Assembly (NCBI GenBank): GCA_964511175.1
Contig: CAZEEI010000005.1
Location: 3,416 to 67,415, forward strand
DNA length: 64,000 nucleotides
Origin: an uncultured Pseudomonadales bacterium
GTDB lineage: Bacteria; Patescibacteriota; Microgenomatia; UBA1400; UBA1396
Reading direction: 5' to 3'
In this document: positions 1,758-63,054 of the stretch, piece by piece
How the letters are laid out: the number at the start of each line of letters is the position of its first letter
Numbering within the stretch: the stretch's first letter is position 1
Position numbers and translations under genes: made by a program
Notes under the pieces: generated by a model
Seen by the model: the letters and a program-made list of their open reading frames with translations, nothing else
Told to the model about the DNA's origin: nothing
Database searches by the model: none

Positions 1758-3278
1758 TTAGGGCAGGGTAAAAAATTGACTGACTAACGCTTGTCGCTGC
1801 GTTTCATTCCAACCAATCACTACATCTTGTCGCACGTAGAGGTCAGTTACCCGACCGTCGGCGCGATATAAATGGTAATACTGCTTCGTCAGGAGCGGCG
1901 CCAGCGATTGGTAATAGAAACTGCTGGGTTCGGTTTGGAAGTAAACAAAAGCAGGCGGTGCAGCCAACAAAGCCTGCCAGTCGGCCTGAAGTTTGGGTAC
2001 ATTCCAAGCCCAGTTGAGGTGAAACACCTGCTGGTCGGACGTTGGCAGGCTGGTCAGGATGTGCAAATACCCGTCGCCGTCTGGACCGGTCAGAAGAGTA
2101 TCGCCAGGATTCTTCACTAGGTTAAGCGCGTTGGCAATAGCTTGATAAGTCCCGTACTGGATTGCATTTTCGGCTAACCGATTTTTCCGTTCGGCCACCC
2201 AAACTAAATTACCAGTCAGCAAACCTAGCCATATTAGCAGTAATACCCCACGCGCTATTCGGCTGGGCCAGCGCCGCCAGACCGTGGTGGTAGCTACGGC
2301 CAATACTGCTGCCAAGGCTGCCAAATAGGGCCAGAGGTGAAAACCCTGGTAGAACCGAATATTAAAGTGGTCACTGCGGGTGTTTAGTAGCCAAAGACCA
2401 ATCAAAGCCAACCACCACGGCCAGCGTTTTTTACTTTGCCAAATCACCAAACTAACTAGCACAATCGCTGCCGCAAAAAGACGACCTATTGGCTCGCTAA
2501 GTGCCGCTGCTTGAATAAACGGATAAAACAATACGGCCCATCGGTTACCTGGCGTTGCCGCGGGAATGACGTAACGTACTGAAGTTAAAACCGTTTTCTC
2601 CCACCAAGCCGCTGGTGAAATCAGGCCAAACAAAGCGAGGGTCGGCAATAAACCGGCTAGCACTAATAACTTTTTTTGCGGCCAAGGCAGACGCCAAAGG
2701 AACCAGCCAGTCGCCAAGCCAACCAGTGGCCAGAGAGGTAAAAGGTTGAAAAAAGCCCCAAACAAGGCGATTGCCAAAGCAATTACATCAGGAACGGCTA
2801 AACGGTAGTAGGAATCTTGGGCTAAAGCGAAGTAGTAAAGCACAATCGCCGCCACCGCCGGCGCGGCCAAAGATTCACCCAACACATACCAGCCAAAAAA
2901 CCAGTGGGACAACGCCAGCAGCAGCGCACTAGTCAGCAAGCCGCGCCAACGGAAACGAGCCACCAGCCAGGCCGAGCTCACTGCTAAATACACCAGCATC
3001 ACCCAACGAATACGTTCGATTAGTAAGAAAAGCGAATTGTAGGGTAGTAGTTTAGTTAAAATCGCCCCAGCCAGCACCGGCAGAGGTTGGTGCGTTAAGG
3101 AAAGGTCGGTGTACAACCGGCGGCCGGACGACCACATCAGCCAACCCATCGTTAAGTGGTCGGTTTCATCCTGAAAATACCAGGATTGGGAGTGGGAGCG
3201 TAGTCCCCAACCAACCACTACCAACAAAATAAAGAAAATCGGCCAAATCAACCAAGATCGACGGGCAATTAATTTCAT
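1758..3278 (-). CDS. polytopic membrane protein, glycosyltransferase family 39/83-like (ArnT/PMT-type) candidate
   Basis: About 505 aa with more than 10 predicted TM helices (Trp/Leu/Ala-rich) and a C-terminal soluble domain. The supplied ORF starts at TTG 3287; ATG at 3278 gives MKLIARRSW. Confidence 0.5.
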   Translation of the reverse strand: MKLIARRSWLIWPIFFILLVVVGWGLRSHSQSWYFQDETDHLTMGWLMWSSGRRLYTDLSLTHQPLPVLAGAILTKLLPYNSLFLLIERIRWVMLVYLAVSSAWLVARFRWRGLLTSALLLALSHWFFGWYVLGESLAAPAVAAIVLYYFALAQDSYYRLAVPDVIALAIALFGAFFNLLPLWPLVGLATGWFLWRLPWPQKKLLVLAGLLPTLALFGLISPAAWWEKTVLTSVRYVIPAATPGNRWAVLFYPFIQAAALSEPIGRLFAAAIVLVSLVIWQSKKRWPWWLALIGLWLLNTRSDHFNIRFYQGFHLWPYLAALAAVLAVATTTVWRRWPSRIARGVLLLIWLGLLTGNLVWVAERKNRLAENAIQYGTYQAIANALNLVKNPGDTLLTGPDGDGYLHILTSLPTSDQQVFHLNWAWNVPKLQADWQALLAAPPAFVYFQTEPSSFYYQSLAPLLTKQYYHLYRADGRVTDLYVRQDVVIGWNETQRQALVSQFFTLP

Positions 3279-3362
3279 TATAACCAAGCGTACTGCCAGA
3301 TCTATGTTTAATCAATCGTGCTGACTGCCACACCGTATGCTTCCGTTTTAACTCGACTACTC

Positions 3363-3494
3363 TTATGCCGTGAAACGCATATTGGGTAAATGATTGTTTT
3401 GTTTGATAGATAAAGTTAAAAATTAACAGTTAATCGAATATAAAGTCTTCCCCAGATACAAAACCTTGGTTGCTATATGCGTTTCACGGCATAA
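3363..3494. repeat. 20-bp perfect inverted repeat (TTATGCCGTGAAACGCATAT / ATATGCGTTTCACGGCATAA) flanking a 92-bp AT-rich spacer
   Basis: Arms at 3363-3382 and 3475-3494 are exact reverse complements. The element lies in the divergent region between the membrane-protein gene and infC, 10 bp upstream of a TTGACA hexamer. Confidence 0.8.
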
Positions 3495-3584
3495 ACGAGT
3501 CGGTTGACAAAAGATATGTTTACCACCCCCAATACCCCGCCTGCAATGTTATAATCGCTGAGTAGAAAAAATAAGGAGGTCACG

Positions 3585-4157
3585 ATTCGTTTTCGACCAC
3601 GCAAACCAAAACATCATGATGTCCGCCCCGCCATGGCGCGCTATGTGATGAATGAAATGATTACCGCGCCACAAGTGCGGCTAATTGATCAGTATGGCGG
3701 CCAAATTGGCGTCATGTCACGCGAAGAAGCGTTGGCTAAAGGTGATGAGGAAGAAAAAGACCTCATCATGATTGCCGACCAAGCCGTACCACCGGTTGTT
3801 AAATTGATTGAACTTTCCAAATTCCGCTACCAAGAGCAACAGAAGCGTCAAGAAGAAGCCAAAAAGTCCAGTAAGGGTAGCGACCTCAAGGAACTGCGTC
3901 TTACTCCCTTTATTGCTGCTGGCGACCTAGAAGCGCGGATTAACCGGGTGCGTGAGTTTTTGGAAGAGGGAAGTAAAGTACGTCTCCACGTCAAATTCCG
4001 CGGCCGGGAAGTAACTAAACCGGAATTCGGCAATCAAGTACTCAAAAAAATATTTGATGCTGTAGCCGATGTGGGCAAAGTGGAAACGGCTCCCAAACTG
4101 GCCGGTAAGTTCATGACTGCTCAGTTAATGCCAACCGGCAAGAAAAAGACGGTTTAG
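3585..4157 (+). CDS. infC: translation initiation factor IF-3 (probable AUU start codon)
   Basis: IF-3 signature (ITAPQVRLIDQYGGQIGVMSREEALAKGDEEEKDLIMIADQAVPPVVKLIE). An in-frame ATT at 3585 sits 4 nt after a strong SD (AAGGAGGT, 3573-3580), and the region to ATG 3633 has no stops. The extension adds an RPRKPK basic N-terminus that aligns with the E. coli IF-3 N-terminus. AUU initiation is the conserved autoregulatory feature of infC. Confidence 0.8.
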   Translation: MRFRPRKPKHHDVRPAMARYVMNEMITAPQVRLIDQYGGQIGVMSREEALAKGDEEEKDLIMIADQAVPPVVKLIELSKFRYQEQQKRQEEAKKSSKGSDLKELRLTPFIAAGDLEARINRVREFLEEGSKVRLHVKFRGREVTKPEFGNQVLKKIFDAVADVGKVETAPKLAGKFMTAQLMPTGKKKTV

Positions 4158-4208
4158 CGTTGCGATTTTATTACTTGCTGTTATAATACTTCTTCTGTCA
4201 GGAAATTT

Positions 4209-4418
4209 ATGGCGGCAAAAAAGTTTAAACATAAGACTCGTAAAACCGTAATTAAGCGCTTCAAGATTACCGGTACTGGTAAGGTGATGCGTCGCTCCCA
4301 GGGTATGCGCCACTTGCGCCGTCGTAAGGGTAAAGCTCTGCAGCGTCGCTACGCTATCCCGGTAGAAATCAAAGGCCGCTGGGCTAAGAAAATTAAACAA
4401 ATGTTGGGCATCGCTTAA
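4209..4418 (+). CDS. rpmI: 50S ribosomal protein L35
   Basis: 69 aa, MAAKKFKHKTRKTVIKRFKITGTGKV..., typical L35; conserved infC-rpmI-rplT order. Confidence 0.9.
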   Translation: MAAKKFKHKTRKTVIKRFKITGTGKVMRRSQGMRHLRRRKGKALQRRYAIPVEIKGRWAKKIKQMLGIA

Positions 4419-4427
4419 AAAGGAAAT

Positions 4428-4787
4428 ATGTCACGCGTTAAAACTGGTTTTCATCGTCACGCTCGTCACCAAAAAGTGCTTGGTTTCACCAAGGGCTACC
4501 GCATGACGAAAAACCGCCTATACAAAGTGGCGCACGAAGCCATGCTACACGCTGGTCAATACGCTTACATTGGCCGCAAGAATCGCAAACGCGACTTCCG
4601 CGCCCTCTGGATCACGCGTATCAGCGCCGCCGTCAAAGCGGTGTCGGCTCAACTTAATTATTCTCGCTTCATGAACCAACTCAAAGCCGCCAATATCGAG
4701 TTAGATCGCAAGATGCTAGCCGATTTAGCCGTACATGATTTGGACGCTTTTAGTGAGGTGGTTAAGGCCGCCGAAGCTAAAAAATAA
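4428..4787 (+). CDS. rplT: 50S ribosomal protein L20
   Basis: 119 aa, [26 protein letters not shown]...[14 protein letters not shown], typical L20. Confidence 0.9.
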
Positions 4788-4797
4788 AACGCCAAAC

Positions 4798-5220
4798 TTA
4801 TATCGCGTGCCTAGTACTATTCCGTTCAAGTTCGCTCTGCTTTTGTCGATAAAGCACTCGTTGCTCAATATCGCCAATTTGTGGTACCTTTTGTTGAGCG
4901 ATCGTGCTTAAAAGCAAATCACGCGCACCGGAATCTAGCCAGTCTTTAATCGGCAAGCGTAGTTTTTCGCCATTATTGGCTAGAATAATAATTTCTCCCC
5001 AGTGATGCCACACCTCCAGTTCAGGAATTAGCCCCACCACGCTATCTTCTTTAACCGACTGCCCACGCTGTCGAGCTAATAATCTGGACTGATCCAGAAA
5101 TCTCATCTCATCGCGAACGGCCACAATGTCTGTGGCCAATAATTGTGTAGTCCCAACCGCGACCATCAACTGAGGAGAGCCTTCTTTACTACTGCGACCT
5201 ACTGTTAATAATCTGTTCAT
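4798..5220 (-). CDS. hypothetical protein (140 aa)
   Basis: ATG with SD AAAGGA 8 nt upstream; no recognisable domain. Confidence 0.5.
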   Translation of the reverse strand: MNRLLTVGRSSKEGSPQLMVAVGTTQLLATDIVAVRDEMRFLDQSRLLARQRGQSVKEDSVVGLIPELEVWHHWGEIIILANNGEKLRLPIKDWLDSGARDLLLSTIAQQKVPQIGDIEQRVLYRQKQSELERNSTRHAI

Positions 5221-5235
5221 AATTTTCCTTTCCCA

Positions 5236-5266
5236 AACAAAAAACCCTCCTTGTGGAGGGTTTGTT
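5236..5266 (-). terminator. rho-independent terminator (hairpin CCCTCC-TTGT-GGAGGG plus U-tract on the minus strand; weaker on the plus strand)
   Basis: 6-bp GC stem at 5245-5260. On the minus strand it is followed by UUUUUUGUUU (complement of 5236-5244), and it sits downstream of the decarboxylase gene stop at 5406. Confidence 0.6.
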
Positions 5267-5405
5267 CGGCTGCTTTATTTTAGACTACGCGCTTAACCCT
5301 CCCCTTAATTTCGGGAAGAAAAAGAAAGACGCAAAAGAGAATACTATTAAACTTCTCATTAGGGCTAAGGTTACTATATTTATCCCCAATTGGCAAGCAG
5401 AGAAC

Positions 5406-6923
5406 CTACCTATTTGTCGCTGACTCAATTAACTGTTCCAGCAGGGTAATGGCCTCTTCAATATGTGTGGGCTCAGTGCGTGGATGCATTAATACGGCGC
5501 GGTAAGTCCATTGTTGTCTTTCAGCGGGTGACAAAGCATCAACTGACTCATCTACACTTAAGTTGGTGGCGGAAAAGAAATATCCCGACTGATCACGCAG
5601 TTGTTGTCTGGTTAACTCGATGATTGGCTCCAGTTGAGAATTATGGGTTATACCATGCCTGCGACAATACTCGGGTCGGATGGTGAAACAAACCACGTTG
5701 AGATGCGGCTTGTGCAGAGGCTGAAGTATCGGAGAGGCTAAGAGCCGTCGATAAAGGTACCCTGTATTATTCAGAGTGTGGTCTAAAAGTGCTTGCCACT
5801 CTTGTTTAGAAAAAGCATTGATGGCAGCCACGGTGGCTAAAACACAACCCGCCCCCGCCGATCCTTCAATTCTTTTCTGTCCAAGACTAACTTGTCCTGG
5901 CTTGAAAACATAAGCAGCATCATCCGAATCAAATTTTATTTTAGCGTGTTCATGAGGATCACGAAAAACGACTGCCCCAGCCTCATATGGCGTGTTTAAC
6001 GTTTTATGTGGATCCAGTGTAACCGAATTGGCTCTTTGAATACCCTTAAACAAATGTTTTTGGGTAGACATTAGATACGCAAATCCATAGGCGGCGTCTA
6101 CGTGGAGATAAATGTGATATTTCTTAGCGATATCCGCAATAGCATTAAGAGGGTCAACAATACCAGTTTCCGTTTCGCCAGCAATTGCGACAATTGCCAT
6201 AATTTTTTTGCCGCTGTCCGTAATTTCGCGGATCATCGCTTCTAGACCAGCCGGATCCATTTGGAGATTACGACTAGGAGCCTTAAGAACTGAGATTGAT
6301 CCATTGGGTCCGGCCAGAATGCGTACTGCTTTAGTGATGGAGTAATGGATAAACGGATTAGCAATAACGACGAACTCATTATTAGGACGTTCAGTGGTTG
6401 TTAGTCTTTCACGCTCAGCTTTTTCGGAGGCTAACTCACGGGCGACCCAAAGAGCGGTAAGGTTGGCCAGCGAGCCGCCGGAGGTAAAAGTCCCGCTGGC
6501 GCTCTTTTTGTCAAAACCAACTAACTCAGCCAACCAACCAATAGCCTCCGGTTCTAAGGCTGACTCTACTTCCGAAACTTCCCGGGCAACCGTATTAGAT
6601 CCAGACCGAATAGCCAGAATATATGCCAGCATCGCCGGAATTGAAGCCTCCGTCAACATATGACCAAGATAAAACTTATCAAAACGCTGCGCCTTTTTAA
6701 GGTGTTCAAAAATACGTTGAATAGCCTGCATCGCTTGGGGATTTTTTCTACTTACAAAACCCCGATCTCCATCCGCCATGTTTTGCAGAAGAATATAGAA
6801 TTGTTCGAGCTCGGCATCGTGATTTTCAGGGTCAAAAAAAGCAGCTCGCGCTGCCTCTAAATCAGATTGGTTAACCCTAAATTTAAACTCAGGATTTTGT
6901 TTTCGCGATCCTCGCTTATTCAT
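5406..6923 (-). CDS. pyridoxal-phosphate-dependent group II amino-acid decarboxylase (fold type I)
   Basis: HVDAAYGFAYL...SVTLDPHKTLNTPYEAGAVVFRD carries the S-x-HK PLP-lysine motif of GAD/TyrDC/MfnA-type decarboxylases. The supplied ORF starts at TTG 6983; ATG at 6923 (MNKRGSRKQ..., GGTGA upstream) is preferred. Confidence 0.8.
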   Translation of the reverse strand: MNKRGSRKQNPEFKFRVNQSDLEAARAAFFDPENHDAELEQFYILLQNMADGDRGFVSRKNPQAMQAIQRIFEHLKKAQRFDKFYLGHMLTEASIPAMLAYILAIRSGSNTVAREVSEVESALEPEAIGWLAELVGFDKKSASGTFTSGGSLANLTALWVARELASEKAERERLTTTERPNNEFVVIANPFIHYSITKAVRILAGPNGSISVLKAPSRNLQMDPAGLEAMIREITDSGKKIMAIVAIAGETETGIVDPLNAIADIAKKYHIYLHVDAAYGFAYLMSTQKHLFKGIQRANSVTLDPHKTLNTPYEAGAVVFRDPHEHAKIKFDSDDAAYVFKPGQVSLGQKRIEGSAGAGCVLATVAAINAFSKQEWQALLDHTLNNTGYLYRRLLASPILQPLHKPHLNVVCFTIRPEYCRRHGITHNSQLEPIIELTRQQLRDQSGYFFSATNLSVDESVDALSPAERQQWTYRAVLMHPRTEPTHIEEAITLLEQLIESATNR

Positions 6924-57264: not shown

Positions 57265-58296
57265 ATGCCGCTAGTCCTAGGTGTACTCATTTTTAGCTTC
57301 TGCGTCACTAGTGCGTTTATTGTGCCTTTCATTAATGCTCTTTATCACTTTAAGTTCCAGCGCCGGAAGCAAATGACCACCGACACTTTTGGCGAACGGG
57401 CCACTATCTTTGATACTTTTCACGCTCACAAGGCTGGTGTACCGGTGGGCGGTGGCATTTTGATTATTGCGGTGATTTTAAGTATTTTTGCCTTAATTTT
57501 TCCAGCTCTGCGCTGGCTGGGTATTAATGTTACTAATGTTTACCCTCTGAAGGCGGAAATTACGATTTTATTCTTCTCCTTTCTTTCGTTTGGTTCGATT
57601 GGTCTTTATGATGACATTAAGAAGTTCTTTGGTATTAAAAAATCCAAATTTTTCGGCTTACGGTGGCGGCATAAACTTTGGCTGCAGGTAGCCAGCGCCG
57701 CTGCCCTGGGATCCATGATGTACTTCTGGCTAGGCATCAACTTTATCCATATCCCATTCGTGGGACAGATTCAGCTTGGAGCCTGGTTTATTGCCTACGC
57801 CACTTTTGTGATTGTGGCCTTTGCTAACGCGGTCAATATTACCGATGGCCTGGATGGTCTGGCGGCTGGCGTGCTGCTGTTTTGTATGTTCGGTCTCTGG
57901 GTGCTGTCGGCCTCGATTCTGGATACAACTTTGTCGATTTTTGTCGCCCTAATTATTGGCTCGATTATCGCGTTTTTATACTTCAATATTTATCCAGCCC
58001 GATTATGGATGGGGGACGTGGGAGCGTTGGCGTTGGGCGCCAGTTTGGCGGTAATTGGTTTATTGCTAGGCAAAAGCATGGCGCTGGTAGTAATCGGCGG
58101 AATTTTTGTGGCCGAAATTGCGTCCAGTGCCGCACAGTTGCTATCCAAGCGTTTCCGTCACCGCAAGATTTTGCCGGTAGCCCCGCTTCATCTCTGGCTG
58201 CAATACGTCGGTTGGGAAGAACCTAAGATTGTGATGCGTGCCTGGGTAACCGGCATCATCTTGACTGCCATCGGCGTTTGGCTGGCCATGATTTAA
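57265..58296 (+). CDS. mraY: phospho-N-acetylmuramoyl-pentapeptide transferase
   Basis: NAVNITDGLDGLAAG signature; 10 TM. Confidence 0.9.
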   Translation: MPLVLGVLIFSFCVTSAFIVPFINALYHFKFQRRKQMTTDTFGERATIFDTFHAHKAGVPVGGGILIIAVILSIFALIFPALRWLGINVTNVYPLKAEITILFFSFLSFGSIGLYDDIKKFFGIKKSKFFGLRWRHKLWLQVASAAALGSMMYFWLGINFIHIPFVGQIQLGAWFIAYATFVIVAFANAVNITDGLDGLAAGVLLFCMFGLWVLSASILDTTLSIFVALIIGSIIAFLYFNIYPARLWMGDVGALALGASLAVIGLLLGKSMALVVIGGIFVAEIASSAAQLLSKRFRHRKILPVAPLHLWLQYVGWEEPKIVMRAWVTGIILTAIGVWLAMI

Positions 58297-58309
58297 GGAA
58301 AGGAAACTT

Positions 58310-58699
58310 ATGTCTGATAAAGAAAAAAAGGAAAAAGGTCGCCCCTTTTTATCTCTTAGTGTTAAGGAAAGTGTTTTGCTCCTTGATCCTCTAGGTAATG
58401 ATCTTCTTCAACTTACCGATTACGAAGTATATGGACGGTTGCTGCCGGAAACAATTGATTTCCTTAACCAAAAACGCCAACTTTATATTCGGCTCGCCCG
58501 CGCCATCAGAACAGTTAATCAGTTAACGATCGAGCAAAAACTGAGTATGGGTTTAGTCGATCTATTAACCGAAACTGAACTGGAGCGGATTACTGCGGCA
58601 ACACAGCCGGGAAAATTACAGCTAAACAACCGAAACTATGCTCTCTATGCTGAGTATTTTTTGGCACAGAAAAGAGCGGAGTACGAATCGCCGCGCTAG
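58310..58699 (+). CDS. hypothetical protein (129 aa)
   Basis: ATG with an AAGGAAAGGAAA SD. Confidence 0.5.
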   Translation: MSDKEKKEKGRPFLSLSVKESVLLLDPLGNDLLQLTDYEVYGRLLPETIDFLNQKRQLYIRLARAIRTVNQLTIEQKLSMGLVDLLTETELERITAATQPGKLQLNNRNYALYAEYFLAQKRAEYESPR

Positions 58700-58701
58700 T
58701 T

Positions 58702-60462
58702 TTATTTGACCGTAACGCTTTTGGCCAAATTCCGCGGCCGATCAGGATTATTGCCCCGTAAAATGGCCAGGTGGTAGGCCAGCAGCTGGCTGAAGAGCGC
58801 GGCGGCGGCGAGTTGAGCCAAAGGTTCTTCCGGCAAGATAATGGATCGGTCAAATACCGCATCCGATTGGGTTGCGATCCCCACGAGCCAGCCGCCGCGC
58901 GCTTTTAACTCCAGCGCCGTGGTTATCGTTTCCGTCTGCTGTTGAGCCGAACCAAATAACAAGCACGGCACTCCCGCCTCAATTAAGGCCAAAGTTCCGT
59001 GTTTTAACTCACCGGCTGCCATCGCTTCTGCGTGCAAATAACTAATCTCTTTAATCTTCAGAGCTGCTTCTAAGGCGATCGGTAAAAATGAACCACGCCC
59101 TAACAAAAAAAGATTAGGTTGATTGGTCAGTTCTTTGGCTAATTGTTCGATTTTACCCAGCCAAATTTGATCCCGTAGTAAGCTGTCCAATACCTCTGCT
59201 GCTGCTTCAACCGAACACTTTCCTGCGGAGAAGTGGCCGCTAATCATCTGGGATAACCAAAAAAGCAGAGCCATTTTAGCCATGAAGGCTTTAGTCGAAG
59301 CCACCGCTTTTTCCCGACCGGCCGCTAATTGTAATTTAAGGTCGGCCATCCGGTCTAAGGTTGACCAGGGGGAGTTGGTAATAGCGATCACCTTGGCGCC
59401 GCGCGCCTGCCACTGGATCAACGGCTCAACCACATCAATAGTTTCACCACTCTGAGAAAGTACAACTACTACTGTTCCCTCGGCGATGAAACGTGTGAAA
59501 GAAGACGCCTCACTCGCTAAAATCGTACGGGAAGCAATGCCTTGGGCTGCTAAAAATTGTTCACCAAGTAGAGCGGCGTGCCAGGCTGTTCCGCAAGCTA
59601 GGAAGTAAATTGCCGGTGCTTTGACTAGGCGATCAACTACCGGTTGCAGTTCTGTCTCAGCGCGCTGACTCAGACGATGAAGTACTGTCGGTTGTTGGTT
59701 AATTTCGCGCAACATTTGGTGGGGGAAACGACCATCATCTTGATCAATCGTATCGGCCGATATTTGACGCCATACCGGCATTATCACTTCTCCCGATTCT
59801 TGGTAAAACCAAGCTTGCTCGGCCGATAATTGAGCCAACTGGCCATCGGCTAGAAATAAGACTTGGTTAGTCAAACTGGCCAGCGCGGCGCCGTCAGAAG
59901 CCACTGCGTAACCATCGGCCAAACGACCTACGGCTAAAGGGGAACCGCGTCGCCCTAAAAATAGGCGCCGCGCGCGCAAGGCCAGCAGTACCACCGCATT
60001 CAAACCGGTCAACCGTGACCACGTCTGTTGCCAGGCTTGCCAAACATCCCCACACTGCTGGTAGTTGGCCACCATTAAGTGAACAATCACTTCGGAGTCG
60101 GTTTCGGAACGGAAACTGTATCCCTGATTTTGCAATTCCTCACGCAGCAACAAAAAGTTTTCAACAATACCGTTATGAACTACGGCAAATTGGCCGTCCG
60201 CACTCAAATGCGGATGGGCGTTAGCTACGGTTACGCCGCCGTGGGTAGCCCAACGGGTATGGCCGATACCCAATTGGGTAGGTTGCCAATGCAAAGATTC
60301 CACTTTAATCGGCCCCACTTCTTTGTGTGTCTCCAACCGACCATTTTGTTCGACAGTCACGCCCCAGGAGTCATAACCCCGGTACTCCAAATCCCGCAAT
60401 CCAGCCAAGATTTCGTCAGCGGGATGTTTTTTACTGGTCACTAAACCAAAGATGCCGCACAT
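58702..60462 (-). CDS. glmS: glutamine--fructose-6-phosphate aminotransferase
   Basis: MCGIFG N-terminal nucleophile; two SIS domains; 586 aa. Confidence 0.9.
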   Translation of the reverse strand: MCGIFGLVTSKKHPADEILAGLRDLEYRGYDSWGVTVEQNGRLETHKEVGPIKVESLHWQPTQLGIGHTRWATHGGVTVANAHPHLSADGQFAVVHNGIVENFLLLREELQNQGYSFRSETDSEVIVHLMVANYQQCGDVWQAWQQTWSRLTGLNAVVLLALRARRLFLGRRGSPLAVGRLADGYAVASDGAALASLTNQVLFLADGQLAQLSAEQAWFYQESGEVIMPVWRQISADTIDQDDGRFPHQMLREINQQPTVLHRLSQRAETELQPVVDRLVKAPAIYFLACGTAWHAALLGEQFLAAQGIASRTILASEASSFTRFIAEGTVVVVLSQSGETIDVVEPLIQWQARGAKVIAITNSPWSTLDRMADLKLQLAAGREKAVASTKAFMAKMALLFWLSQMISGHFSAGKCSVEAAAEVLDSLLRDQIWLGKIEQLAKELTNQPNLFLLGRGSFLPIALEAALKIKEISYLHAEAMAAGELKHGTLALIEAGVPCLLFGSAQQQTETITTALELKARGGWLVGIATQSDAVFDRSIILPEEPLAQLAAAALFSQLLAYHLAILRGNNPDRPRNLAKSVTVK

Positions 60463-60757
60463 GTCGACCTTTCTTTTTTCGCTTAATCAGAAAACCGAAG
60501 CAGTTGCTTCGGACAGTGTGATCAAAGACTTTGTTCCAGCGTTTACACGCTGGCTTTAATCCTGATCTCAGTTGGTGGACTGCCAACCACCAGAGGGTCT
60601 CCGCTGATGCTCGCTTTCGCCACGGAAAGCGGTCCGATCACGCTTTAGGGTGTAACCCTCCAGGCGTATCCCTCCTCCTCGTTACCCGCCAATTGGCGGG
60701 CCAGACGCTCGTCAAAAGTGTGATTTAGGGAGGCCTCCTTTCGCTATGATTGGTCTC
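60463..60757 (-). promoter_or_regulatory. long structured glmS 5' leader (candidate riboswitch / attenuator)
   Basis: Minus-strand promoter TGtgTATAAT at 60758-60767 gives a roughly 290-nt leader. The leader holds multiple GC hairpins (CCCGCC-AAUU-GGCGGG, CGCUUUC-N6-GAAAGCG, CCAGCG-UGUAAA-CGCUGG) and UAACGAGGAGGAGGG, which resembles the glmS-ribozyme GACGAGGAUGGAGG core. It ends in the terminator hairpin. Confidence 0.4.
60485..60512 (-). terminator. intrinsic terminator-like hairpin (CCGAAGC-AACU-GCUUCGG plus UUUUCUGAUU) inside the glmS 5' leader, about 25 nt before the SD
   Basis: 7-bp GC-rich stem followed by a U-tract on the minus strand, between the leader and the glmS RBS. This is the classic expression-platform position. 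Confidence 0.55.
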
Positions 60758-60797
60758 ATTATACACATTACCGACTTCTTTTTTGGCTGCTCAGTTT

Positions 60798-60817
60798 ATT
60801 TGTACATATGTACAAAT
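60798..60817. promoter_or_regulatory. 20-bp perfect palindrome ATTTGTACATATGTACAAAT (candidate operator), copy 2
   Basis: Identical to 40981-41000. It sits in the divergent region, about 30 bp upstream of the glmS leader -10 and 92 bp upstream of ORF 60909. Confidence 0.6.
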
Positions 60818-60908
60818 AAATCGAACATGCTGACGTAATAATTACGACCGATTTATATGCTAGTGAGTGTGTTAGAATAACCGAAAACTTATCGCTTGAA
60901 AGGAAAAT

Positions 60909-61289
60909 ATGGGTCGCACTCCTCATAGTAGTAGCCGTGAAAATGTAGAATCTACTCTTCAGGACAGTATGAACCTCCGGGATGCACTCTTGACTTTAGG
61001 CGCGGAGCAGCGCCTCCTTTCTATGCACCCTGTTCCTGAAGAAGCGGTGACAATGGCCATCCATCAAATTACTAGGAATAAAAATCGTTTACAGGCCATG
61101 GCCGATTTACAAATCCTTCATAACATTGCTACAAATCTCTTGCGAATGTTCGAAACCACCGAATATTTAAGTCTTTTCCCACATTATAATCGACTGTGGA
61201 ACATCATCAATGATGCTCGCGCTCTTACTCAACTAGGAGATGACTATCGCGTCGAATTGACGCGTCGTGGCGCTAAAAATCCGCGCTAA
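60909..61289 (+). CDS. small hypothetical protein (126 aa), paralog of the next gene
   Basis: ATG with an AAGGAA SD. Shares AMADLQILHNI...FPHYNRLWNII with the downstream protein's VMADLQTLQTHI...FDHYTDLWLIV. Confidence 0.5.
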   Translation: MGRTPHSSSRENVESTLQDSMNLRDALLTLGAEQRLLSMHPVPEEAVTMAIHQITRNKNRLQAMADLQILHNIATNLLRMFETTEYLSLFPHYNRLWNIINDARALTQLGDDYRVELTRRGAKNPR

Positions 61290-61355
61290 CACTTGACCAC
61301 TAGATGGTGTGTTTGTGTTAGAATGATCGACAAAGCCAAAGATTGGAGCTAAATT

Positions 61356-61685
61356 ATGGCGCGTATCCTAAATCAAGAAACTACCTTTTCGCCGGAAATT
61401 CTTGCGGGCTGGGGTATAAAACCGGAATCACTCAGTCATCCCATCACAACTGAGACTATTCAGCAAATTGTTGCGCGGATACGGCTACAACAAGACCCTG
61501 CTTGTGTTATGGCTGATTTACAAACTCTGCAGACTCATATCGAAAAGATAAAAGGTCGGTATGATGATGACGATGACGATGATGTTCGCCAAAAAATTTT
61601 TGATCACTACACCGATCTCTGGCTTATTGTTTTTGACACCATGGAAGCTTTGCAGGAAATCGAAACTCCTAATACTTTAAGATAA
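61356..61685 (+). CDS. small hypothetical protein (109 aa) with poly-Asp run, paralog of the previous gene
   Basis: ATG with a GGAG SD; DDDDDDD run. Confidence 0.5.
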   Translation: MARILNQETTFSPEILAGWGIKPESLSHPITTETIQQIVARIRLQQDPACVMADLQTLQTHIEKIKGRYDDDDDDDVRQKIFDHYTDLWLIVFDTMEALQEIETPNTLR

Positions 61686-61716
61686 GGACCAAAAACCAGC
61701 GTATACTGAGGCTGAG

Positions 61717-63054
61717 ATGACCGTCTGGGAGCGCTTTCAACAAGAAGTTAAGGGCAAACGTGTCCTAGTGTTCGGCTTGGGCATCCAGGGTGGGGGAGTA
61801 GCCGCAGCCAATACTCTCGTCCAGGCTGGCGCGGTGATGCGCGCTACTGATCAACAGCCGGCCAAACAACTAGGTGAAGCATTAACTCAACTGGATCACT
61901 CGATCGAAGGCACTTACGGCGAACACCGTAAGTCAGATATCGATTGGGCCGACATCGTCTTAAAAAATCCCGCTGTGCCATTTACCCATCCCTTAATCAA
62001 ACAGGCCCAAGCCGCTGGCAAATTAGTCTTAACTGAAACCGCTTGGGCTCTGCAGTACCTGCGCGACCAAACGATCGGCGTCACCGGTACCCGCGGCAAA
62101 ACCACCACCAGTCATTTGATTGCGGCCATCCTGACGGCCAGCGGCCAACCGACTTTACTGGGTGGCAACATTCCGCAGCAACCCGCTCTTTCCCTGTTGC
62201 CTAAAGTCACTGCTGACACTGCCGTTGTGCTGGAAATTTCTTCTTTTCATCTCGAATCAAGTGATCGGCAGCAAGTTTCGCCCCGCTACGCCGTTGTCAC
62301 CAACCTTTATCCTGACCACCTTAACCGCTATACTTCACTAACTGAATATGCGCAGGCTAAAGCGGCGATTTTTGCTTGGCAAAAAGCCGGAGATCACGCT
62401 TTTTACGGCAAACATCACCCTTGGTCGGACACCCTAGCAAAAGCCATTCAGCCAGGAGTGCAAGCTCATGTTTTAACCGCAGCCGATTTTGCCGCTGCCG
62501 CGTCTTATGACACTCACTTACCAGGCGAACATAATCGCGAAAATATGGCCTTTGCCATAGCGGTAACCCAAGCTTGGGGAATTGCTGAACCCTTGATTAG
62601 GGCGGCGATCGCTAATTTCACCGGCGTGCCGTTCCGTCTGCAAACGGTGGGTCGGGTAGGGAAAATTGAGTTCATTAACGACACTACTGCTACGACACCG
62701 GTTGCTTTGGAAAAAGCCCTGGACACCATGACCGAACCTTTTGTTCTCATCGTTGGTGGTGCCACTAAACATCTACCACTGGAAGCTAACTTGCTAACTA
62801 AATTGCGGGAAAAACCTAGTGCGATCATTTGGCTGGCCGGTTCGGGCACAGACGAACTACAGTCGGCTTTAGGATTAAATAACATCCGGGCAACCACAGC
62901 TCTGCCGCTGGCCGTCAGCCAAGCGTTAGAACAGGCTAAGCAAAATGGTGCCACTAAGATTCTCTTTTCGCCTGGTTTTACTTCTTTCGAATTCTTCCGT
63001 AACGAGTTTGACCGCGGCGAACAATTTAACCAAGCTGTACAGGCTTATACCTAA
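61717..63054 (+). CDS. murD: UDP-N-acetylmuramoylalanine--D-glutamate ligase
   Basis: Rossmann N-terminus VLVFGLGIQGGGVA, Mur ligase P-loop GVTGTRGKTTTSHL. Confidence 0.9.
   Translation: MTVWERFQQEVKGKRVLVFGLGIQGGGVAAANTLVQAGAVMRATDQQPAKQLGEALTQLDHSIEGTYGEHRKSDIDWADIVLKNPAVPFTHPLIKQAQAAGKLVLTETAWALQYLRDQTIGVTGTRGKTTTSHLIAAILTASGQPTLLGGNIPQQPALSLLPKVTADTAVVLEISSFHLESSDRQQVSPRYAVVTNLYPDHLNRYTSLTEYAQAKAAIFAWQKAGDHAFYGKHHPWSDTLAKAIQPGVQAHVLTAADFAAAASYDTHLPGEHNRENMAFAIAVTQAWGIAEPLIRAAIANFTGVPFRLQTVGRVGKIEFINDTTATTPVALEKALDTMTEPFVLIVGGATKHLPLEANLLTKLREKPSAIIWLAGSGTDELQSALGLNNIRATTALPLAVSQALEQAKQNGATKILFSPGFTSFEFFRNEFDRGEQFNQAVQAYT

Follow-up and report, generated by a model that had tools for sequence, protein, structure and literature searches.

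What controls the expression of glmS in the uncultivated bacterium that contributed contig CAZEEI010000005.1? In the 64-kb stretch of this contig analyzed here (hereinafter the window), the gene lies on the minus strand and is preceded by a 5′ leader (60463–60760) that would be about 289 nucleotides (nt) long if transcription starts near 60751, as the position of a TATAAT box suggests. An earlier, sequence-only reading had described this leader as a structured RNA of about 290 nt closed by an intrinsic terminator, and had guessed at a divergent glmS ribozyme, a different class of RNA responsive to glucosamine-6-phosphate (GlcN6P), or a transcription-attenuation riboswitch. The structured minus-strand leader of about that length was borne out, its whole fold reaching –104.6 kcal/mol (z = –3.6). 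A consensus scan recovered no full sigma-70 promoter at the glmS leader; the elements that frame the leader are:

58702–60462, minus strand: glmS coding sequence (glutamine--fructose-6-phosphate aminotransferase, 586 amino acids), the regulated gene, with Pfam GATase_6/7 and two SIS domains
60462–60460, minus strand: glmS start codon AUG, from sequence reading and the list of open reading frames (ORFs)
60473–60468, minus strand: Shine-Dalgarno sequence GAAAGG, from sequence reading
60763–60758, minus strand: predicted –10 box TATAAT, from sequence

The search with RF00234 and the riboswitch models that the earlier reading had proposed was covered by scanning all 64 kb against Rfam 15, with the gathering thresholds as cut-offs. 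Only two matches were retrieved, one a tRNA and the other the glmS ribozyme, with no other riboswitch or ribozyme in the window:

60510–60720, minus strand: glmS ribozyme RF00234, scoring 60.2 bits (gathering score 37) over model positions 1–167 of 167, E-value 2.2e-11

For a 64-kb window, this E-value places the structure far beyond chance. The alignment includes a 61-nt insert, and the 3′ end of the ribozyme (60512) lies on the same strand 50 nt upstream of the glmS AUG (60462). The leader is thus very probably a glmS ribozyme, that is, a GlcN6P-sensing self-cleaving RNA that would provide feedback control of glmS, a reading carried by the observed family membership, complete architecture, conservation, and covariation. 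The guess of a divergent glmS ribozyme accordingly held, with a full-model match above the gathering score and compensatory changes in four relatives, and that of a different GlcN6P-responsive RNA class found no support: the window copy is a variant of a known ribozyme class and not a new kind of regulator.

The relatives in question are four loci (L002, L003, L004, and L018) at which homologous leaders lie upstream of glmS. The window GlmS has no close homologue, its nearest counterparts being P0002–P0004 (53–55% identical) and P0005 (46%); the leader element has been kept even though the glmS genes of these relatives are only 46–55% identical in protein. With RF00234, L018 scores 58.5 bits, L003 43.9 bits, and L004 20.0 bits (below threshold), and L002 gives no match even at E ≤ 10, so that the current Rfam covariance model misses two of these five sequences. 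When aligned with the window (alignment A1, five related sequences), all four leaders are clearly the same element as the window ribozyme, and in each of the five a TATATA/TATAAT box and a purine motif comparable to those of the window lie upstream of it. The contig of L004, labelled 'MAG: Candidatus Woesebacteria bacterium' (MAG, metagenome-assembled genome), is the nearest labelled relative. Separately, a Logan contig from SRR8925769 (L001) is an independent short-read assembly of the window sequence that ends within the inserted region of the ribozyme, 163 nt upstream of glmS; its RF00234 match is 5′-truncated and scores 30.7 bits (below the gathering score of 37).

With the secondary structure of PMC7125110, which derives from crystallography, as the template for mapping by analogy, we found all the helices of the family (P1, P2, P2.1, P2.2, P3, P3.1, P4, and P4.1) in the window copy, in the following order from the 5′ end (a slash within a sequence marks the cleavage position):

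60709/60708, minus strand: predicted self-cleavage site A-1/G1 (A60709/G60708) in the context GACGA/GCGUCUG, aligned to model A/GCGCC and conserved in position in all five sequences
60707–60702, minus strand: 5′ strand of P2.2, C2 G3 U4 C5 U6 G7 (U4 for canonical C4), pairing with 60606–60602
60701–60684, minus strand: P1 hairpin GCCCGCC-AAUU-GGCGGGU with a basal G·U pair, –13.6 kcal/mol
60683–60677, minus strand: core strand AACGAGG (canonical GACGAGG), with the 5′ strand of P2.1 (C28 G29 A30) that holds the essential active-site guanine, invariant in five sequences
60674–60670, minus strand: 5′ strand of P2, GAGGG, pairing with 60597–60593, with one A-U to G-C compensatory change in L018
60669–60638, minus strand: insertion 1, a variable hairpin of about 30 nt in the P2-to-P2.1 linker (canonical, about 4 nt), from folding
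60637–60635, minus strand: 3′ strand of P2.1, UCG (canonical U43 C44 G45), within an invariant UCGGACC, all three pairs holding in five sequences
60631–60612, minus strand: insertion 2, a 7-bp hairpin CGCUUUC-CGUGGC-GAAAGCG in the P2.1-to-P2.2 loop (canonical, about 5 nt), from alignment and folding
60606–60602 and 60601, minus strand: 3′ strand of P2.2, C52 A53 G54 C55 G56, and then G57, pairing with 60707–60702
60597–60593, minus strand: 3′ strand of P2, CCCUC, from the Rfam alignment and pair counts
60592–60573, minus strand: P3 hairpin, whose loop L3 GGCAGU (60584–60579) forms the P3.1 pseudoknot; six pairs, two of them compensatory
60567–60520, minus strand: P4/P4.1 peripheral domain with a GUAA tetraloop and the A-rich internal loop UAAA/ACAAAG, from the Rfam alignment and folding
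60517–60512, minus strand: 3′ strand of P3.1, ACUGUC, six pairs with L3 GGCAGU

P1 is paired in all five sequences despite differing loops and some differing pairs, and residues 43–45 are part of the cofactor pocket (PMC7125110), while the P4.1 tetraloop and the internal-loop adenines are known to matter (PMC11602151). Of the two insertions, the first, which falls within the 61-nt insert of the Rfam alignment, folds into a hairpin in the window (–11.3 kcal/mol), L018 (–20.2), and L003 (–9.8) with no conservation of sequence, and by eye also in L002, with no clear hairpin in L004. Insertion 2 is present in all five as a stem of the form C(G/A)CUUUC/GAAAG(C/U)G with variable loops and one G-C to A-U compensatory change. 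The motif UAACGAGGAGGAGGG quoted in the sequence-only reading was located at 60684–60670 on the minus strand. That reading had also held the cleavage site and the rest of the ribozyme consensus to be not evident: exact AGCGCC and CGGCGGAUG are indeed absent, but their variants, AGCGUC (60709–60704) and CAGCGGAGA (60606–60598), are in place. Thus, against the consensus strings AGCGCC, GACGAGG, and CGGCGGAUG, the window reads AGCGUC, AACGAGG, and CAGCGGAGA; because these strings are a consensus and not strict requirements, the mismatch marks a variant and not exclusion from the family.

Covariation across the homologous leaders, another check proposed at the outset, agrees with this structure. 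In alignment A1, the 30 core pairs of P2.2, outer P1, P2.1, P2, insertion 2, and P3 are standard pairs in all cells (150/150), and five of the 30 are changed on both sides in a compensatory manner, a degree of pairing and compensation reached by none of 500 shuffles; as a control, sliding the partners by 1–3 columns gave 34–53% pairing and no compensatory pairs. P2.2, P2.1, and P2 together contribute 13 pairs to the double-pseudoknot core proper, every one of them standard in the five sequences, with compensatory changes in P2.2 and P2, and the P3.1 partner was found in five of five and covaries (e.g., GCAGC/GCUG in L003). Between the five sequences the ribozyme core is 69–92% identical, versus 52–63% for the glmS coding DNA. 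These covariation statistics, drawn as they are from five related sequences, are supportive and not conclusive.

The residues of the active site and pocket present a similar picture: A-1/G1, C2, G29, U43-C44-G45, G56, and G57 stand at the aligned positions and are invariant in the five. In the Thermoanaerobacter tengcongensis (Tte) core, mutation of G1, C2, G3, G29, G45, G56, or G57 abolishes activity; the window retains all of these, and all except G3 are invariant across the five sequences (for instance, the G29 mutants, under file index G35, are dead, as are those of G56 and G57; PMC7125110). Elsewhere in the core the subgroup departs from the consensus. We compared its substitutions with the per-mutant observed rates (kobs) and natural frequencies of the Andreasson 2020 source data (PMC7125110), which concern the Tte core and in which the file index exceeds the core number by 6; the frequencies are second-hand, from a table derived from the McCown 2011 collection. 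The consensus Tte core reacts at about 0.064 /s at 10 mM GlcN6P (PMC7125110), against which the single mutants compare as follows:

C4U: natural frequency 0; kobs at 10 mM 2.4e-5 /s; present in all five sequences
G3A: natural frequency 0; kobs at 10 mM 2.6e-5 /s; present in L002 and L004
C55U: natural frequency 0; kobs at 10 mM 1.2e-5 /s; present in L002 and L004
G54A: natural frequency 0.0035; kobs at 10 mM 2.0e-5 /s; present in L002 and L004
G53A: natural frequency 0.059; kobs at 10 mM 7.4e-5 /s; present in all five sequences
G26A: natural frequency 0.058; kobs at 10 mM 3.7e-3 /s; present in all five sequences

The window also has A6U and A8G, two global suppressors in vitro (PMC7125110); with natural frequencies of 0.16 and 0.44 in the same table, both are common variants and were not counted as special. 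P2.2 pairs as C2-G56, G3-C55, U4·G54, U6-A53 (with C5 bulged), and G7-C52 in the window, L018, and L003, and as C2-G56, A3-U55, U4-A54, U6-A53, and G7-C52 in L002 and L004. The probable partner of A53 is U6, which moves the bulge to C5 from canonical position 6. This P2.2 corresponds to the alternative 'bulge-shifted' form that the authors of the mutational study inferred from rescue data; in vitro, bulge-shifted variants keep partial activity, and compensated P2.2 pairs regain activity to within ~35-fold of the consensus (PMC7125110). None of the pairs U4·G54, U4-A54, and A3-U55 had been seen in the reference collection, and the 'not seen before' status of the substitutions rests on this 2011-derived table and on the under-scoring or missing of these sequences by Rfam. 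As a separate observation, the sister ribozymes of L002 (1099–1290) and L004 (1563–1763) combine A/GCAUC with CAAUGGAAA (A3-U55, U4-A54) and an eroded P4.

We propose that an RNA initiated from the promoter near 60763–60758 would adopt the double-pseudoknot core P2.2-P2-P2.1, with P1 and the P3/P3.1/P4/P4.1 domain as its braces. On accumulation of GlcN6P, the product of GlmS, the metabolite would bind the preformed pocket and serve as the cofactor for cleavage between A60709 and G60708; this would free a 5′ fragment of about 43 nt and leave the glmS message with a 5′-hydroxyl end, and degradation of that message would then lower GlmS synthesis. Published glmS ribozymes repress in this way, by self-cleavage and subsequent mRNA decay and not by termination, and the decay step is known from Bacillus (as cited in PMC5473149). 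For the window copy, we infer the GlcN6P dependence, the exact chemistry of cleavage, and the mRNA decay step.

Several points weigh against this interpretation. C4U, G53A, and G26A are each deleterious singly in the minimal Tte core, so activity would depend on a putative compensation by the rest of the variant. L004 and L002 have weak P4 domains and fail the Rfam model, and the covariation rests on only five, mutually related sequences. Further, RNase J was not found among the ten largest function-unknown ORFs of the window (498–662 amino acids), which leaves the decay step for this organism to inference.

Compared with the canonical glmS ribozymes (RF00234; Bacillus subtilis, B. anthracis, T. 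tengcongensis), the window copy shares the location in the 5′ untranslated region of glmS, all the helices, the GNRA loop on P4.1, the A-rich internal loop, the A-1/G1 dinucleotide, and the residues C2, G3, C28-G29-A30, U43-C44-G45, G56, and G57. It differs in having A/GCGUC for A/GCGCC, A26 for G26, and GGAGA for GGAUG; in the U4·G54 wobble, A53, and a bulge that has probably moved from position 6 to 5; in two extra hairpins in the two loops of the core pseudoknot; in the terminator-like hairpin that follows the ribozyme; and in its host, which is of an uncultivated lineage, with Ca. Woesebacteria as the nearest labelled MAG. A canonical member, L022 (GCA_017884065.1, 88.7 bits), shares the family and the association with glmS, with a GlmS 44% identical to that of the window; however, it has AGCGCC, GACGAGG, and CGGCGGAUG, with core loops of 4 and 5–6 nt, and the window copy scores 28 bits lower, mainly from the 61-nt insert and the core substitutions. 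Judged by its sequence, the window copy belongs to a lineage-specific subgroup marked by the altered P2.2, A26, and the two inserted hairpins. The GlmY/GlmZ system of Enterobacteria acts on the same gene with the same logic of GlcN6P feedback on the glmS mRNA. It is trans-acting, through small RNAs (sRNAs), RapZ, and RNase E, whereas the Rfam scan of the window shows only the glmS ribozyme and one tRNA, and no such sRNA.

As annotation, a glmS gene preceded by a glmS ribozyme is an ordinary outcome. However, changes beside the scissile phosphate that come close to killing the model ribozyme when made one at a time (C4U, and in the sisters G3A/C55U/G54A) have here become fixed, in a background with a shifted bulge and two inserted helices, constituting a natural experiment; such variants could reveal by what epistasis and peripheral additions a catalytic core is rescued, and they would widen the sequence space known for the only natural ribozyme that depends on a cofactor. 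They also take the ribozyme into a small-genome uncultivated lineage whose relatives mostly have an operonic, leaderless glmS. In the literature searched, a glmS ribozyme in the lineage of the window is not described, and we found no mention there of glmS ribozymes together with the Candidate Phyla Radiation (CPR). A bolder interpretation, which we consider unlikely, is that the clade carries a structurally rewired subclass with a bulge-shifted P2.2 and two helices in the double pseudoknot, whose catalytic or ligand properties could differ and whose window copy is possibly coupled to a terminator. If that were so, cofactor affinity, specificity, or dependence on the inserted helices could depart from those of the canonical class.

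The same substitutions raise the question of whether the ribozyme still works. On a relic or repurposed reading, the fold would have been kept but GlcN6P-dependent cleavage lost or made very slow, the leader acting constitutively as an element of mRNA stability or folding, or by cofactor-independent cleavage. U4, A53, and A26, each of which cuts kobs 17- to 2,700-fold in the Tte core, lend this some weight, as do the absence of U4 from the reference collection, the eroded P4 of L002 and L004, and the frameshifted glmS of L004. The frameshift, however, may be an assembly error, and the active-site and pocket residues have stayed the same while the glmS genes diverged to 46–55% protein identity, with a core more conserved than the coding DNA. 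Moreover, the P2.2 changes are compensated (G3-C55 to A3-U55, U4·G54 to U4-A54), as selection for a working active site predicts. We therefore hold a relic to be decidedly improbable and retain the interpretation as a presumably active glmS ribozyme. In L004 the glmS frame (1835–3593) is broken near codon 61 and is called as ORFs of 61 and 530 amino acids, reflecting either an assembly error or a pseudogene.

The sequence-only reading had also seen the architecture of an attenuation riboswitch in a hairpin and U-tract just upstream of the ribosome-binding site (RBS). As sequence, this element was confirmed at 60512–60485:

60512–60495, minus strand: hairpin CCGAAGC-AACU-GCUUCGG, –11.1 kcal/mol, z = –3.6 versus shuffles
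60494–60485, minus strand: U-tract UUUUCUGAUU, with four consecutive U, directly 3′ of the hairpin

The stem has 7 bp, five of them GC pairs, and lies between the ribozyme and the RBS, with pair probabilities of 0.94–1.0 in the ensemble of the full leader. On the attenuation reading, ligand control of this hairpin and U-tract would end transcription before glmS, a layout that recalls the terminator-type riboswitches (e.g., SAM-I and FMN leaders) in having a structured leader and a GC hairpin with a U run before the RBS. In addition to the stability of the hairpin and its UUUUCUGAUU tract, a conceivable antiterminator speaks for it, since L3 could pair with ACUGUC or ACUGCU. Yet the combination of hairpin and U-tract is confined to the window, the U-tract being absent in four of four relatives: L003 has a hairpin followed by AAUUAUUACC and no U-tract, L002 and L004 have other hairpins without a U-tract, and L018 has no stable hairpin. 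In the window, hairpin and ribozyme have a single nucleotide in common, C60512 (in the last pair of P3.1), and the hairpin is therefore not mutually exclusive with the ribozyme fold, so that both structures can coexist. A scan for terminator patterns found one site in 700 nt, and shuffles of the same 700 nt yielded as many (0.9 ± 0.9). The L3-ACUGCU pairing, considered as an antiterminator, was rejected since it is not conserved and the hairpin is formed with a pair probability above 0.94 in the full leader; the window, in contrast to the terminator-type riboswitches, lacks a competing antiterminator, and its sensor is a ribozyme, which needs no expression platform. glmS ribozymes are also largely preformed and are not known to switch folds on ligand binding, which likewise counts against attenuation. 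With the U-tract found in the window only and no competition with the ribozyme fold, an attenuation mechanism is not supported, and published repression by glmS ribozymes proceeds by cleavage and decay (PMC5473149); we consequently give the attenuation riboswitch very little credence. Most likely the hairpin is an accessory, window-specific element, which may weakly attenuate transcription in a constitutive manner or insulate the folding of the ribozyme from its surroundings; it is neither a ligand-controlled expression platform nor a conserved part of the ribozyme. As an observation in its own right, L3 GGCAGU (60584–60579) can form 6 bp either with P3.1 ACUGUC (60517–60512) or with the near-repeat ACUGCU (60504–60499) inside the hairpin, a potential specific to the window.

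The weakest alternative, a conserved small leader peptide acting by leader-peptide attenuation instead of an RNA function, has in its favor the short sense ORFs present in every leader (25, 32, and 51 codons in the window) but has a negligible chance of being correct, for these ORFs, checked for a conserved small protein as the earlier reading had proposed, differ among the relatives in start, frame, and length and diverge in frame where helix lengths differ, no start codon lies at Shine-Dalgarno distance from the conserved GGAGG motif in any of the five leaders, and the substitutions are pairwise-compensatory and not codon-periodic. The purine motif itself, the Shine-Dalgarno-like GAAAGGAGG (60742–60734, minus strand), lies near the predicted 5′ end of the transcript, 25–35 nt upstream of the cleavage site and inside the 5′ fragment that cleavage would release; its counterparts are at about 1077–1086 in L002, 1549–1558 in L004, 1733–1745 in L003, and 1260–1272 in L018. 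As a speculation, it could be a 5′ stabilizer that self-cleavage removes.

The gene neighborhood of the ribozyme is shared with its relatives. In the window VanW, MraY, and MurD surround glmS, as they do among the relatives, where VanW-MraY lies on one side (L002, L004, and L018), glmS is inverted, and MurD(-FtsW) lies on the other side (L003, L004, and L018). The cassette of glmS and its ribozyme is inverted between mraY and murD in the window (57265–63054), L004, and L018; the contigs of L002 and L003 show the same arrangement up to the point where they end. In L026, a more distant relative found through MurD on a 1.08-Mb contig, mraY and murD are adjacent (3928–6365) without glmS there, which suggests that glmS and its ribozyme were inserted together, as one cassette. 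Among MurD relatives, those with a name are Ktedonobacteria, at about 42% identity. In the homologues L019–L021, L023–L025, and P0007 (42–46% identity), glmS is operonic with gaps of 1–12 nt and has neither leader nor ribozyme; two of these carry CPR labels (Levybacteria and Beckwithbacteria). Together with the label of L004, this points to an uncultivated lineage, probably of the Patescibacteria type, as the taxon of the window.

Further searches for relatives added little: a protein-pattern scan of genome contigs with GlmS found no relative, and the DNA pattern GAGCRTCTGG...TAACGAGGAGGAGG recovered only the Woesebacteria MAG (L004) in the genome contigs and none in the metagenome contigs. 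A looser DNA pattern, AACGAGGAGGAGG...GGARACCCTC, gave 12 metagenome loci (L006–L017), all of which were rejected as chance matches in GC-rich coding DNA.

Only in the window are the glmS leader and murD separated by two ORFs without a Pfam match (60909–61289, plus strand, 126 amino acids; 61356–61685, plus strand, 109 amino acids, the latter containing seven consecutive Asp); murD abuts the leader in L003, L004, and L018. Another ORF without a Pfam match (58310–58699, plus strand, 129 amino acids) lies between mraY and the 3′ end of glmS and is also found in L001, the gap at this point in L018 being 3 nt. Finally, a perfect 26-nt palindrome, TTTATTTGTACAT/ATGTACAAATAAA, is situated at 60795–60820, between the divergent genes and 32 nt upstream of the –10 box of glmS, and could serve as the operator of a dimeric regulator or as a shared promoter element.

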